A stretch of DNA of 44,851 nt, taken from positions 1-44,851 of IMG/VR virus record IMGVR_UViG_2974654489_000001; one strand, 5' to 3'. Made by a program: the position numbers and the translations under genes. This stretch comes from a virus. Lineage: Duplodnaviria; Heunggongvirae; Uroviricota; Caudoviricetes. Positions 8,737 through 39,860 of this stretch are shown here, piece after piece (within the stretch, counting starts at the first letter, position 1; each line of letters opens with the position of its first letter). The notes under the pieces were generated by a model. The model was not told the DNA's origin, searched no databases, and saw only the letters and a program-made list of their open reading frames with translations.

Positions 8737-8762
8737 GAGAGGGACTTCGGTCCCTCTTTTCA
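8737..8762 (+). terminator. Intrinsic terminator (AGAGGGAC-TTCG-GTCCCTCT + TTTT)
   Basis: 8-bp stem, UUCG loop, T tract after capsid gene. Confidence 0.7.
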
Positions 8763-13535: not shown

Positions 13536-13561
13536 TAAGGCCCCTTTCGGGGCCTTTTTCT
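13536..13561. terminator. Bidirectional intrinsic terminator (AAGGCCCC-TTTC-GGGGCCTT)
   Basis: 8-bp GC stem with A tract upstream and T tract downstream between convergent genes. Confidence 0.7.
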
Positions 13562-14115
13562 TACAAACCTAATTTTAAAGCAATGTCTATAACGTTCGAT
13601 TTAACGTCACCCGGTATGATATAGGTGTCGTAATCTTTTACACCACTAACATCATACAGGTAGCCACGGCTATCCCCGTCAAACGTGTAGCCGTCTCGGT
13701 GCAAGCGAACAATTCGCACGTCATGCCCAGCGGCGACGATAGGGGCCACTTCACTGGCGAATCCACCGTCGGAAACTACAAAAACTTCGTTGCCGCCGGG
13801 CAAGTTTTCAGCAAGATACTTACCGAAATAATCACTACCAAGTACCGGTTTAATGAATTGTTCAGAGATAGCAATCATGAACTGACGTCGCGACAAACCA
13901 TTAAGGAAGCCTTCCGGCTTTTCTTTCCGCGCTCGGTCGTCGTAGCCGTCGAGAAATTCGTGGTAAGCATCAGGGCCTAACGCCGCCAGGGCAATATTGA
14001 ACATTGGATTCTTGAAACTGGCAGTTCCTTTTGCAAAGCCCATTTCTACCAGCGCCATAGCAAGAGTGTCTTTCCCGCAACCAGCAGGACCATTAAGAAT
14101 AATTACCTTAGCCAT
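13561..14115 (-). CDS. P-loop nucleotide or nucleoside-monophosphate kinase
   Basis: Walker A ILNGPAGCGKDT at N-terminus; overall layout resembles phage dNMP kinases. Confidence 0.6.
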   Translation of the reverse strand: MAKVIILNGPAGCGKDTLAMALVEMGFAKGTASFKNPMFNIALAALGPDAYHEFLDGYDDRARKEKPEGFLNGLSRRQFMIAISEQFIKPVLGSDYFGKYLAENLPGGNEVFVVSDGGFASEVAPIVAAGHDVRIVRLHRDGYTFDGDSRGYLYDVSGVKDYDTYIIPGDVKSNVIDIALKLGL

Positions 14116-14600
14116 TATTTATCACTCCCGTGCGATTTTAAGTGTGTAGAGTTCCCGTTACAGTCGTATTCAGTAACCGCGTGAGTGGTTATACCGAGGC
14201 CGCGGAAATGCTTTATTACCGCTGGCGAGTCGTCGAACGCACACAAGATTCTTTCTAGCCCGATCGCACGCAACACTTCTTCTTTAATTACGATGTCTTT
14301 TCTGTTGTCGTGTTTGCTGCGCATGATTAGCTGATAAAATTCGACGCGGTGGCGCTGCAACCACATTCTGGTTTCTTTTTCTGCGTCATCACTACGGCCC
14401 GTTAAGATAATAACGGCATAGCGACGATTAAGGGCGTTACACAGTTCGATGTTATCCCTAATGGGTTCATCATCTTTGCACGCCATGTTAAATGGCTTCC
14501 ACGCCCATGTTTCGTTGTAGTTATCTTTCGGCAGCAGGTGTAAACGATGCGTACCATCCGCCAATGTTCCATCTAAATCGAAAATTACAATGTCTTTCAT
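14115..14600 (-). CDS. HAD-superfamily phosphatase (polynucleotide 3-prime phosphatase or nucleotidase-like)
   Basis: HAD motif I FDLDGTL at residues 7-13; further motifs (ILTGR, RKDIVIKEE, FDDSP) resemble the phosphatase domain of T4 polynucleotide kinase as recalled from memory. Confidence 0.6.
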   Translation of the reverse strand: MKDIVIFDLDGTLADGTHRLHLLPKDNYNETWAWKPFNMACKDDEPIRDNIELCNALNRRYAVIILTGRSDDAEKETRMWLQRHRVEFYQLIMRSKHDNRKDIVIKEEVLRAIGLERILCAFDDSPAVIKHFRGLGITTHAVTEYDCNGNSTHLKSHGSDK

Positions 14601-15727
14601 CCCAGCATCTCCGGTGAAATAGTTAAACGTGCGACCTCGCCATATTCGGCGCTATAAGTAATTACATTTGCACTACGGCCTGACATCCATCCGCCGCGGG
14701 AAGCGTAGGCATCTTTCGCCGCCAGGGTGCGGTGTTGCTCAACAATCATGTTACGGCTTTCTACGATCTTCTGGTGATGCAGGTGGCCTACGTGGGCGTA
14801 GCTATAGACACTCTCACCGAACGCTTTGCGGAACTTAGCGATCATAACCGGTTCAATAGCGTCGAATCGTGCTTTATGTCCGTGGTGGAAGAACAGGGTC
14901 GTTTTGCCGTGCTGCACCATCTTATAAACATCCGGCGACGTATCGACGAACACACGCGGCTCATTGTCGTACAGCGTACTGAACATCTCAGCTAACCAAA
15001 TCATCCCACTTTCGTCGTGGTTCCCCTGCACGATAAGCAAGCGAACATTTTTATGTTTAACGAGAGCCATATCAACAACACGGCGGACCATACGGATCAT
15101 GTAGCGGACCAGTTTCTGGTAGCGCGTGTCAGCGTCAAGAACATTACCGCTTGCCGGGGTAACGGCAACCAGACTGTCGAAGTGCGCAAGGTCGCCTAGC
15201 AGGTTAATAACACCCGTACCCGCGTCTGGTGCTTTCTGGAATGCCGCGTCGAACCAGCGGGAGAACAGGTCTTCCGCGATTTTCATGTCCCAGTCGTCTC
15301 CGCTCTCGTCGCCCCAGGCCAGCATACCGAGATGGAAATCAGATATCGTGTAAAGATTGAGTAGCTTGTCGTCGCGTTTAGCTCGAGTCGCTTTAACAGG
15401 CGCAACTGGGGTAATCTCTGACTTCATCCCCTCAATTACGGCTTTCATCAACTCGACCTGACGCTCGACATCGGTGTCAGTCTTAACCCATTGCAATTTA
15501 GTGTTGCCAAACTCGTCCACCAGGGACGACGTCCCTTTAATCTTGTAGCCGTCCGGTACAAGGTGACTAACGTCACGCCCGTGGCCCACGCCTTTCTTTG
15601 CCAGTTTCGCTTTGCGGATACGAATAACGCGGTCTGAGATGCCGTATTTACGGGCGATATCGATATTCTTCATACCGGCGTTCAATTCTTCCTGCAACTG
15701 TTCGTCGGTTATTTTCTTCCGGGCCAT
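14597..15727 (-). CDS. Calcineurin-like metallophosphoesterase with N-terminal HTH domain
   Basis: Motifs DFHLG, GDLAHFD, QGNHDE, HHGH, GHLHH; N-terminal IDIARKYGISDRVIRIRKAKL helix-turn-helix. Confidence 0.7.
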   Translation of the reverse strand: MARKKITDEQLQEELNAGMKNIDIARKYGISDRVIRIRKAKLAKKGVGHGRDVSHLVPDGYKIKGTSSLVDEFGNTKLQWVKTDTDVERQVELMKAVIEGMKSEITPVAPVKATRAKRDDKLLNLYTISDFHLGMLAWGDESGDDWDMKIAEDLFSRWFDAAFQKAPDAGTGVINLLGDLAHFDSLVAVTPASGNVLDADTRYQKLVRYMIRMVRRVVDMALVKHKNVRLLIVQGNHDESGMIWLAEMFSTLYDNEPRVFVDTSPDVYKMVQHGKTTLFFHHGHKARFDAIEPVMIAKFRKAFGESVYSYAHVGHLHHQKIVESRNMIVEQHRTLAAKDAYASRGGWMSGRSANVITYSAEYGEVARLTISPEMLG

Positions 15728-15979: not shown

Positions 15980-16016
15980 TAAGTGAATAGTACCCTATTA
16001 TATTGGGGTGTGCAAG
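15980..16016 (-). promoter_or_regulatory. Leftward promoter cassette CTTGCAC-N7-TATAAT-AGGGTACTATTCAC with inverted repeat AATAG-N4-CTATT (15986-15999)
   Basis: Near-identical to cassettes at 6036-6076 and 38348-38387. Confidence 0.5.
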
Positions 16017-16123
16017 TAGTGTGCTAGAATAAGTTTGCGCCTAGTGTCGCACACGAAAAGCGGGTGGTTCCCGTCTGGCGCATTTACCGTTAACCAGTAA
16101 CCTCTTAACCAAAGGATTAAAGA

Positions 16124-25468: not shown

Positions 25469-25485
25469 GGTGGGTTAAATAAAAC

Positions 25486-25511
25486 TAAGGCCCCGTTCGG
25501 GGCCTTTTCTC
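25486..25511. terminator. Bidirectional intrinsic terminator (AAGGCCCC-GTTC-GGGGCCTT)
   Basis: GC stem, A tract upstream, T tract downstream, between convergent operons. Confidence 0.7.
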
Positions 25512-37557: not shown

Positions 37558-37770
37558 TTATTTACAGCCGGAAAACCACGCGTGCACGGAATCATAGAAA
37601 CGACATTTACTTAACACCTCGATTGGCATCTTAATAATGCGCGTCGGTTCCGACAAATGATTAGGCTTACATATTTCTGCATAGAATCCGCTGTCAGTAA
37701 TTTCCGATGCAAACTTAAACCAGTATTTAACTTTACCGTTTTCAAAGTAACAACCCATACGCCCAATCAT
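37558..37770 (-). CDS. Hypothetical protein
   Basis: 70 aa; AGGAGA RBS. Confidence 0.5.
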   Translation of the reverse strand: MIGRMGCYFENGKVKYWFKFASEITDSGFYAEICKPNHLSEPTRIIKMPIEVLSKCRFYDSVHAWFSGCK

Positions 37771-37949
37771 TTCACGTTCTCCTTAATCCACGCTTCAACT
37801 TTATTACGGTCAAATGTTCCCGGTAAACGTCGACCCATAACCTTAATACAACAATCCGGGAATTTACCACTGCGTAACCAGTTATTAATTGTCTGACGTG
37901 TCACCCCGATACGTTCAGCTACTTCATTCTGTGTCATGTAATGCGGCAT
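37767..37949 (-). CDS. HTH DNA-binding protein (AlpA/excisionase-like fold)
   Basis: 60 aa from ATG 37949 with AGGAGA RBS (track ORF extends to 38018); MTQNEVAERIGVTRQTINNWLRSGKFP. Confidence 0.55.
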   Translation of the reverse strand: MPHYMTQNEVAERIGVTRQTINNWLRSGKFPDCCIKVMGRRLPGTFDRNKVEAWIKENVK

Positions 37950-37971
37950 TTTTATATCTCCTGTTTGTTTA

Positions 37972-38000
37972 GTGAAAGCGAGTATAGGATAGCGGGAATG
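37972..38000 (-). promoter_or_regulatory. Leftward sigma70-like promoter (TTGCTT-17 bp-TATACT)
   Basis: Read on minus strand upstream of the HTH gene; coordinates approximate. Confidence 0.4.
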
Positions 38001-38055
38001 TAAAAGCAACCAAAACACTACACAAAGTTACTAAGATACAAAAGATGCTACTGGT

Positions 38056-38084
38056 GTTGACTTTTACTAAGAAATATGGTAAGC
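38056..38084 (+). promoter_or_regulatory. Sigma70-like promoter (TTGACT-17 bp-TAAGCT), paralog of the promoter at 6136-6164
   Basis: Identical hexamers and spacing. Confidence 0.5.
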
Positions 38085-38305
38085 TCAGCCTGAGCTTGTG
38101 AAGTATGAACAAGCGACCGCGGCGCGCGGCAGGCGAAACGAGCACGTGTAGCGTGTGGAGTGAGGCTCGCTAGCGCGTTTGGGAGGCCCAAAGTCTATTG
38201 TAATTCCCGCCTAAATATCTAAGTTACTGATTTGCCGTAGGATAGAACCGCAAGCTCACTCACTCACTCTTGGTGCCTTCGGCACCACGTTCGTTTCGTT
38301 TCGCT
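38085..38305 (+). ncRNA. Candidate leader RNA or small RNA (copy 2 of paralogous element)
   Basis: First 70 nt near-identical to 6165-6235; contains CACT x3 and CGTTT x2 repeats and GGTGCC-TTCG-GCACC hairpin followed by U-rich run. Confidence 0.4.
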
Positions 38306-38347
38306 CGCCACCCCCATTAAACGAAAGAATCACAACGGCAACGTAAC

Positions 38348-38387
38348 TAATCTCTTGCACACCCCGACATAATAGGATACTATTCAC
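38348..38387 (+). promoter_or_regulatory. Promoter cassette CTTGCAC-N7-CATAAT-AGGATACTATTCAC with AATAG-GATA-CTATT (38371-38384)
   Basis: Near-identical to the cassette at 15980-16016 in opposite orientation. Confidence 0.5.
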
Positions 38388-38417
38388 TTATCGCAACGAG
38401 ACAGAGGAGTGAGGGTT

Positions 38418-38606
38418 ATGTTTAAGAAGGGTCAGTTGGTGAAATCGGTAAATAGCAATTATTTCATTATTGAAAGCGAGTCTGCAGTTTTTCCGGGGGC
38501 TTATAGAGTAAGTTTTATCGGGGAAAAATTAGGCCGAGTAACTTGGTTCCGAGAAGACGAGCTAACACTCATCGGCAACAATTTTAAATTCAAAGGGGCG
38601 AAGTGA
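38418..38606 (+). CDS. Hypothetical protein
   Basis: ATG 38418 after GAGGAGTGAGGG RBS. Confidence 0.55.
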   Translation: MFKKGQLVKSVNSNYFIIESESAVFPGAYRVSFIGEKLGRVTWFREDELTLIGNNFKFKGAK

Positions 38607-39490: not shown

Positions 39491-39529
39491 TACGCTGCTA
39501 CACAGCAGCGTATCATTTTTCTCATTTTT
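39491..39529 (+). terminator. Intrinsic terminator (TACGCTGCT-ACAC-AGCAGCGTA + T tracts)
   Basis: Perfect 9-bp stem followed by TCATTTTTCTCATTTTT. Confidence 0.7.
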
Positions 39530-39820: not shown

Positions 39821-39860
39821 TTGCACACTGGTATAGAATAGGCTACTATTCATTTACACA
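39821..39860 (+). promoter_or_regulatory. Promoter cassette CTTGCAC-N7-TAGAAT-AGGCTACTATTCAT with AATAG-GCTA-CTATT (39837-39850)
   Basis: Same architecture and conserved leader CAAACGAGAGGAGAGA as other cassettes. Confidence 0.5.

Follow-up and report, generated by a model that had tools for sequence, protein, structure and literature searches.

The put RNAs of phage HK022 suppress terminators without protein factors, through the β′ zinc-binding domain. The putL and putR elements are about 70 nt long and form two long stem-loops in a V shape, and putL starts at the 5′ end of the transcript (PMC9378689). Antitermination can also depend on a protein: AlpA, which has eight helices, rings the RNA exit channel (PMC9371919). 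Here we describe a leader element in a 44,851-nt stretch of viral DNA (Caudoviricetes; IMG/VR record IMGVR_UViG_2974654489_000001, positions 1 to 44,851; hereafter the window) that represents a Kagunavirus-like siphophage (Guernseyvirinae). Positions 38085-38310 are an untranslated leader from a promoter designated P_A2, in which copy 2 of a folded RNA is found together with a closing hairpin and a pair of simple repeats prone to slippage. We tentatively read this module, with a probability of about 0.42, as a promoter-proximal checkpoint of termination and antitermination for late operons, in which the folded RNA would be the cis element.

Among therapeutic and biocontrol phages of Escherichia coli and Salmonella, members of Kagunavirus and Jerseyvirus are some of those isolated most often; to our knowledge, their gene regulation is essentially unstudied. 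A BLAST search with positions 37900-38500 returned 176 phage records, all of them Escherichia, Salmonella or Shigella siphophages of the Guernseyvirinae, with the closest matches in Kagunavirus.

A folded leader RNA in two copies

The exact P_A promoter pattern has just two matches in the window (6137-6165 and 38057-38085), with an RNA core directly after each, and a covariance model (R1) built from 18 variants of the core matches the window at these two copies only (next best match, E = 2.7). Relatives carry several leader forms at the second locus, termed alpha (the form in the window), beta and delta. The parts of the two leaders are as follows.

6137-6165, + strand: promoter P_A1, the paralogue of P_A2 (pattern match)
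6170-6287, + strand: core of copy 1, with P1 formed by 6174-6179 and 6189-6194 and the long stem at 6197-6261 (covariance model, 144.5 bits)
6346-6372, + strand: intrinsic terminator closing copy 1, GCCCCGC-UUUA-UGGCGGGGC followed by UUUACUU (fold)
38057-38085, + strand: promoter P_A2, TTGACT, 17-nt spacer and TAAGCT, with an extended -10 TG (pattern match)
38090-38208, + strand: core of copy 2, with P1 formed by 38094-38099 and 38109-38114 and the stem P2-P3-P4 at 38117-38183 (covariance model, 103.8 bits)
38209-38254, + strand: A+U-rich, poorly constrained spacer, homologous to the 3′ half of the delta-type leader (UAAAUAUCUAAGUUACUGAUUUGCCGUAGG)
38255-38269, + strand: tetranucleotide microsatellite (CTCA)3.8, CUCA in RNA (Tandem Repeats Finder, 100% matches)
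38271-38287, + strand: leader-closing hairpin UGGUGCC-UUC-GGCACCA, terminator-like and non-canonical (fold and conservation)
38288-38309, + strand: interrupted U-rich tail CGUUCGUUUCGUUUCGCUCGCC, with (CGTTT)2 as CGTTTCGTTTCG at 38292-38303

Judged from its sequence, P_A2 is a strong, near-consensus sigma-70-type promoter of the leader. Invariance among relatives begins at CTGAGC, about 5 nt past the -10 hexamer, and the predicted transcription starts are accordingly placed near 6172 and 38092. The two copies can be aligned, with gaps, over about 118 transcribed nt.

The structure was tested over 29 pairs in 34 distinct core sequences, which were gathered from IMG/VR pattern scans and GenBank matches. 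Its first helix, P1, has 6 bp and stands at the very 5′ end. P2 has 3 + 6 bp and contains a bulged C and tandem G-U pairs, P3 has 3 + 5 bp and contains a bulged G, and P4 has 5-6 bp and a loop that varies. Pairing is present in 94.4% of the cells (29 pairs, 34 sequences), compared with 32-40% when the partners are slid by 1-3 columns. Six pairs have changed on both sides, namely 34-96 (C-G/U-A/A-U), 45-84 (U-A/A-U/G-C) and four in P4. The covariation score is 0.21, compared with 0.085 for shuffles (0/500). For the P2-P4 domain, each of 20 distinct variants has the same long stem as its own minimum-energy fold, and both copies in the window share that fold. On the strength of the covariation, the RNA pairing is under selection, and both copies are folded RNA made up of a 5′-terminal hairpin and an irregular stem, P2-P3-P4, of about 65 nt.

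Primary sequence is also constrained: ACCGCGG, CGGAAGGGCC and CUNUAUUG, which include paired and unpaired positions, are invariant across the two classes of leader described below, as are GGCAGG and GAGUG within class I. On the 3′ side of the long stem, copy 2 has a short hairpin and then the motif GUCUAUUG (38193-38200). A motif of this kind, (A/G)(C/G)UCUAUU after a small hairpin, is found in all leader forms as ACUCUAUU, AGUCUAUU or GCUCUAUU. Searches of Rfam gave only chance-level matches, both for the whole window at the gathering score and for the two leaders at E up to 10.

Of 179 records that match the copy-1 leader, 177 have at least 95% identity to it across its full 253 nt, and the whole of it, spacer included, is 96-100% conserved. 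It is 98% identical to that of Jerseyvirus VSt10, whose flanking genes are 72-88% identical, and this leader form is more strongly conserved than the capsid gene. A second class occupies the same locus in phages of the AG11 and SETP3 type (269 records, 264 of them Salmonella phages), where the covariance model detects it at 37-41 bits:

L226 (AG11) 5775-6000: class II structural-operon leader, also present in L227-L231 (covariance model and single-sequence folds)

In class II, P1 is rewritten as ACGCU-UUC-AGCGU, P3 as CGCG/CGCG and P4 as GGGCG-UCACAA-CGCCC, the last being longer in VT223 through a U-A to C-G change. P2 is retained in identical form (CCGCGGUGC / GCAUUCGG), together with CGGAAGGGCC after P2 and the CUAUAUUGC motif. 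Because alignment of class II to class I by the model gave inconsistent columns, support for the class II pairs was read from the sequences and from single-sequence folds, and stands outside the pair counts given above. Taken together, the folded RNA precedes the structural operon in about 450 sequenced Guernseyvirinae genomes (179 class I and 269 class II records). The core had no match in 5,426 E. coli genomes; a scan of 185,579 species-representative genomes from GTDB gave eight chance matches and one mis-binned phage contig, the sole true match; and relaxed gapped patterns run against IMG/VR gave mostly chance matches, none of which the model confirmed outside Guernseyvirinae-like contigs.

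Protein coding by the core was considered and rejected: the open reading frame (ORF) MNKRPRR..., which starts at an ATG in the P1 loop, is not conserved, since variants of the gamma, L051 and class II types lack this ATG, and the indel lengths are not divisible by three. Short ORFs lie over the leaders in the window at 6184-6294 (+), 38048-38191 (-) and 38256-38387 (-), and GenBank records of relatives carry "hypothetical protein" labels across them (Bas73_0007, CPT_Snoke_056 and Bas73_0055). The frame-shifting indels, the loss of the start codon and the RNA covariation indicate that these leader-overlapping ORFs are spurious.

Closing hairpin, simple repeats and leader forms

The original prediction described the region as the second copy of a leader element with a conserved stretch of 70 nt, situated in a divergent region and carrying CACT x3, CGTTT x2 and a UUCG tetraloop hairpin. 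A second copy does exist, and the conserved stretch proves to be only the ungapped part of the similarity (71 nt, 87%, 6136-6206 against 38056-38126); this repeat (D2) consists of the 29-nt promoter and the start of the transcript. The divergent placement is correct, the leader lying between the start of the leftward gene for a helix-turn-helix (HTH) protein at 37940 and the rightward ATG at 38419. Both simple repeats are present, the first of them in the register (CTCA)3.8. The hairpin is present as well, with a different loop: a UUC triloop is the best fold, and the cUUCGg register leaves a C-C mismatch below the closing pair.

The hairpin at 38271-38287 has 7 bp (five of them G-C), a UUC loop and a folding energy of -11.2 kcal/mol (z = -3.4, 0/200 shuffles). 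All 10 distinct alpha-form sequences have this stem unchanged; in one of them (L AB-2017) the loop reads UCC. The tail that follows, CGUUCGUUUCGUUUCG, passes a loose terminator scan, with four U in the first eight bases.

The alpha form, with (CTCA)n, the GGUGCC hairpin and the CGUUU tail, was found in 18 GenBank records. The beta form (32 records) has none of these three features and is closed by an extended stem of -32 kcal/mol, AGAGAGUAC...GGGGUGGGC-UAAC-GCCCACCC...GUACUCUUUU; alpha and beta closing hairpins occur in combination with different core variants. Most Guernseyvirinae have the delta form at the divergent junction (397 records), with the promoter TTGACA, 17-nt spacer, TAAGKT. Its 5′ domain is not detected by the covariance model. 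The 3′ half shares homology with the spacers of alpha and beta, and a canonical terminator, GGGCAGGC-UUAA-GCCUGCCC-UUUAGUU, forms its end. The delta leader is about 290 nt long (37036-37345 in L101, which is Bas73, and 36790-37100 in L214, which is VSt10), with GC-rich 5′ stem-loops of its own and a hairpin followed by the GCUCUAUUC motif; Bas73_0055 is annotated across it on the opposite strand. The delta 5′ domain may be a second uncatalogued structured RNA.

The terminator of copy 1 lies 18 nt ahead of the spanin start codon and shows a compensatory C-G to U-A change in L001, L010 and L101; it corresponds to T03 in the ARNold predictions for phage Golestan (PMC7203180, Table S5). The closing hairpins of copy 1, alpha, beta and delta fall in the same alignment columns. 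Counted from the first base of the -10 hexamer, the GC hairpin begins at 174-211 nt in copy 1, alpha and beta and at about 255 nt in delta. A fair U run follows the copy 1, beta and delta hairpins. By this alignment the alpha hairpin is the positional homologue of the hairpins closing every other leader form, and it is the hairpin, not the repeats, that is the conserved object at the flagged site.

The repeats vary, and the check proposed with the original prediction, their conservation in related phages, has a negative outcome. CTCA has 3.75 units in the window and 6.75 in Golestan (L005); CGTTT has two units in the window and one in L AB-2017; and neither occurs in the commoner beta and delta forms. 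The spacer at 38209-38254 also varies among alpha relatives. With one mismatch or fewer allowed, CACT x3 was reached in 10 of 100 shuffled windows, and the two matches observed for CGTTT x2 were reached in nine of 100. Since their copy number differs among close relatives and they are absent from other leader forms, both repeats look like neutral slippage tracts that would have no sequence-specific role.

The tail also shows complementarity to the core. Positions 38128-38141 (GGCAGGCGAAACGA, the 5′ strand of P3) and 38296-38309 (the part of the tail with the second CGTTT) form a 14-nt inverted repeat that is 86% complementary, and where a gamma core is joined to a beta tail, another complementarity, of 9-10 nt, occurs in similar places (ACGCAACGC with GCGUUGCGU). 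In a restricted duplex test of this pairing, p was about 0.03-0.07 in the alpha and gamma/beta leaders; copy 1 and three B-core/beta leaders showed nothing. The complementarity may be a long-range pairing formed only in read-through transcripts, or may be due to chance.

A possible checkpoint for late operons and its alternatives

The layout is the same at both loci: a strong P_A promoter is followed by the folded RNA, a spacer, a GC hairpin and then a long late-type operon. Copy 1 heads the operon for spanin, scaffold and capsid. There is no promoter-like site between the copy-1 terminator and these genes, so the structural genes need read-through for virion production. Further strong terminators on the same strand lie within both units, at 8737-8758 (after the capsid gene) and at 39491-39512. 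Under the checkpoint reading, host RNA polymerase starting from P_A would make the folded RNA on entering a late operon, and this RNA, acting in cis either alone (as in HK022 put) or with a phage or host factor (as in nut), would allow the polymerase to continue through the leader hairpin and the operon's internal terminators. Transcripts that stop at the hairpin would be by-products of about 200 nt, comparable to the 6S RNA of lambda. The spacer between core and hairpin is variable (60-80 nt) and the core is joined to unrelated hairpins, which favors a processive, distance-independent mechanism of the put or nut kind over one of the riboswitch type.

A stronger version, in which the RNA of P1 plus long stem would by itself make E. 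coli or Salmonella RNA polymerase termination-resistant and would thus be a new family of cis-acting RNA, seems doubtful. If this version is correct, virulent Guernseyvirinae phages would drive their late operons with a second put-like system, unrelated to the first; if the RNA acted directly on polymerase, it would be only the second type of RNA-only antiterminator known from enterobacterial phages. The folded RNA is a concrete and testable candidate for a switch giving host polymerase access to the late genes. Even if it has no action on polymerase, a false origin call is removed and spurious ORFs are flagged.

Several observations weigh against the checkpoint. The starts and ends of the transcripts are predicted from sequence. 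The folding energies of the cores (z = -1.3 and -1.8) are unremarkable alone, so the case for a folded RNA rests on the covariation. The core is missing from the tail operon (16124 onwards) and from the delta-type rightward leaders (397 records), and so is not a signal common to all late operons. In copy 1 the spacer is conserved as much as the core; a put-like model does not require this, and a full-length functional RNA fits it better. A search of the whole HK022 genome with the leader model, a one-way test, gave no match at E up to 1. The alpha hairpin in the window appears weak as a terminator (7 bp, four U in eight), and ARNold did not list it for the nearly identical sequence of Golestan (PMC7203180, Table S5). 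The class II closing hairpin, which shows G-C to A-U covariation, has no U tract and stands directly before the ribosome-binding site. In view of class II, the hairpin is selected as a hairpin and not always as a terminator; because of this and of the weak, unlisted alpha hairpin, 38271-38287 is described as a leader-closing, terminator-like hairpin rather than a proven terminator.

The conservation of the copy-1 spacer would be better explained if the transcripts of about 200 nt that run to the closing hairpins were stand-alone small RNAs acting in trans, on putative host or phage targets or on a protein, with operon read-through as leakage. Each unit has a strong promoter and a closing hairpin, the whole copy-1 leader is far better conserved than the coding genes (96-100% against 72-88%), and delta leaders are self-contained in the same way and end in a canonical terminator. 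The genes at the rightward locus have a promoter of their own immediately past the leader: the type-B promoter at 38355-38387 (P_B) is the small-gene operon's own proximal promoter, and P_A2 and the leader lie upstream of it. We nevertheless consider this account rather unlikely. The copy-1 unit must also be the leader of the structural genes, there being no promoter-like site past its terminator; copy 2 keeps the core only and leaves its spacer free to vary; and discrete 3′ ends are doubtful where the closing hairpin has no good U tract, as in class II and alpha. A role in mRNA stability or processing is less probable. RNase III-type processing sites are found in the early and late mRNAs of T7, and here the 5′ hairpin and long stem would either block 5′-end-dependent decay or form a site of that type, with the closing hairpin as a further barrier. 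P1 begins 2-4 nt from the predicted start, P2-P4 is an irregular helix of about 25 bp with internal loops, and the closing hairpin of class II, which has no U tract, is retained immediately ahead of the ribosome-binding site. Against this, the strong invariance of primary sequence at paired and unpaired positions points to a specific partner rather than to generic double-strand recognition, and delta-type leaders manage without the core.

The original prediction had raised the possibility of a replication origin or a protein-binding array. In a transcription-primed version, P_A2 transcripts would prime a T7-like replisome, and the repeats and hairpin would be features of the origin. The cumulative GC skew is lowest at about 37-38 kb; the replication genes include those for a T7-like primase-helicase, a polymerase and a gp2.5-like single-stranded DNA-binding protein (SSB), with no initiator annotated; an A+T-richer spacer follows the strong promoter; and a folded primer RNA would covary too. 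The skew minimum cannot discriminate, however, since the direction of transcription switches at the same place. There are no iterons, only slippage tracts of 4 and 5 nt, variable or absent in relatives, and a two-copy 9-mer; the better conserved copy (6.1-6.4 kb) is within the rightward structural region, at a place without a turn in the skew; and most relatives have no core at the divergent junction. An origin is very improbable, and a protein-binding array finds no support either. Slightly less probable still is DNA-based antitermination of the Q or AlpA type, in which a phage protein would bind the shared promoter DNA, load onto polymerase paused near the promoter and take it through the leader terminator, the RNA fold being incidental. 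The layout is that of lambda PR′-tR′ (strong promoter, leader of about 200 nt, terminator, late genes), promoter spacer and initial transcribed sequence are common to both copies, and AAGTAT, a match to NANNAT, occurs at about +10 to +15. The covariation, by contrast, reflects selection on RNA pairing, and the -10-like AAGTAT, which lies in the P1 loop, is lost in relatives: gamma and L051 have GAGAUAUC or GAGUUAUC in its place, and class II has UUC. As to a protein partner, no Q, N or AlpA-like Pfam or PHROG family was found in the 17 ORFs tested, which do not include all small ORFs, or in the annotation of Bas73.

Two further candidates were rejected. The adjacent HTH protein, at 57 aa, is too small for an AlpA-like antiterminator when compared with the eight-helix AlpA (PMC9371919). 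A riboswitch is disfavored by the lack of an Rfam aptamer match, by the variable 60-80 nt between core and hairpin and by the wholesale exchange of closing hairpins on a core whose fold stays the same; the hairpin is not overlapped by any alternative anti-terminator pairing, and the 14-nt core-tail complementarity lies 3′ of it.

Genome context and comparison with known systems

The features that flank the second leader are as follows.

37767-37940, - strand: HTH_17/excisionase-type DNA-binding protein, 57 aa (Pfam PF12728, E = 1.4e-8; PHROG 66)
38326-38387, + strand: conserved block GAAAGAATCACAACGGCAACGTAACTA, then the type-B promoter TTGCAC, 17-nt spacer, TACTAT, TCAC (38355-38387; pattern match)
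38419-38606, + strand: first ORF of the rightward operon (MFKKGQLV..., ATG at 38419)

A gene map was taken from the annotated relative Bas73. Rightward genes for terminase, portal and head morphogenesis come first, followed by one short leftward gene and a second rightward block (spanin, scaffold, capsid, connector and tail terminator); after this come a leftward cassette, rightward tail genes and the long leftward replication operon that encodes the T7-like replication proteins. The rightward run of small genes extends into holin, endolysin and, across the genome ends, terminase and portal. The 57-aa HTH gene is the first gene of the leftward operon, with its start at 37940. In an RNA-seq study of a Kagunavirus, an HTH-domain gene, which may or may not correspond to the 57-aa gene, is the sole functionally annotated early gene, and the resolution of those published transcriptomics is limited to coding genes (PMC12645636). 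The leftward cassette at 13561-15727 (-) encodes a HAD_PNKP-type phosphatase (PF25109, E = 3e-19), a 376-aa protein and one protein with a weak, sub-threshold P-loop match (AAA_18); it resembles a set of genes for a polynucleotide kinase-phosphatase or for nucleic-acid repair, with a type-B promoter driving it. Nearly identical terminators, AAGGCCCC-N4-GGGGCCTT, occur at 5745-5765, 13537-13556 and 25479-25508, two of them scored on both strands, and this family marks the ends of convergent transcription units; a weaker member lies at 3369-3398, between the portal and head morphogenesis genes.

The type-B pattern has four matches in the window and none in 100 shuffles. These promoters (TTGCAY, 17-nt spacer, TACTAT, TCAC) are at 6038-6070 (-), 15983-16015 (-), 38355-38387 (+) and 39821-39853 (+), and are preceded by ATAATAGG; the block ahead of the promoter at the rightward locus, GAAAGAATCACAACGGCAACGTAAC, is kept in the alpha, beta and delta forms. 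The motif is the PHIRE promoter motif published for Golestan (PMC7203180, Table S4). As type-B promoters drive the leftward cassettes and the small-gene operon, they are probably an early or middle class. Inspection by eye identified a leftward promoter, TTGCTT, 17-nt spacer, TATACT, at 37981-38009 (-), back-to-back with P_A2; its -10 hexamer is conserved in VSt10, and it is a probable promoter for the HTH gene and the replication operon. A 9-nt direct repeat, TTACTAAGA, which could be a candidate operator, occurs on the + strand between the two promoters (38028-38036) and in the P_A2 spacer (38064-38072). The tail operon has a promoter-like sequence (TTGGGG, 16-nt spacer, TAGAAT with TG; 16003-16105 region), then a three-way-junction fold of about 47 nt (GCGCC...GGCGC) and then AUUUACC; the folding energy there (16003-16105) is no better than that of shuffles (z = -0.5).

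Among known systems, Rho-independent terminators and attenuators resemble the end of these untranslated leaders in having a GC hairpin and a U-rich stretch, canonical in copy 1, beta and delta; the alpha form differs in its interrupted U tract and class II in having none. The nutL and nutR sites of lambda and the boxA/boxB elements of rrn operons offer a second likeness, since two copies lie past two promoters and a hairpin is followed by a short conserved single-stranded motif. The delta motif GCUCUAUU shares GCUCU with boxA GCUCUUUA (another boxA consensus is CGCUCUUA). The motif departs from boxA at 2-3 of eight positions, so the match is at chance level and no more than a lead; in addition, the structured part is far larger here than boxB, and no N-like protein was identified.

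The PR′-6S RNA-tR′ module of lambda with Q and the PalpB-tB module of Pseudomonas aeruginosa with AlpA share with the leaders the order of a strong, constitutive-looking promoter, an untranslated leader of about 200 nt and an intrinsic terminator directly before lysis and structural genes that have no other promoter. Copy 1 has this layout in full and copy 2 in part, its hairpin and tail being weak. The modules differ in that here the RNA fold itself is selected, the module occurs at two loci, the ORFs tested and the Bas73 annotation gave no Q- or AlpA-like protein, and the pause element varies among relatives. In comparison with HK022 put, the leader core is larger, at about 95-110 nt, and consists of a short 6-bp P1 and one stem of about 65 nt instead of a V; it is found in virulent siphophages and precedes late rather than early operons. 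The likeness to put lies in two paralogous copies carried by the nascent transcript just downstream of sigma-70 promoters, each with two stem-loops containing bulges and internal loops, upstream of operons that contain terminators.

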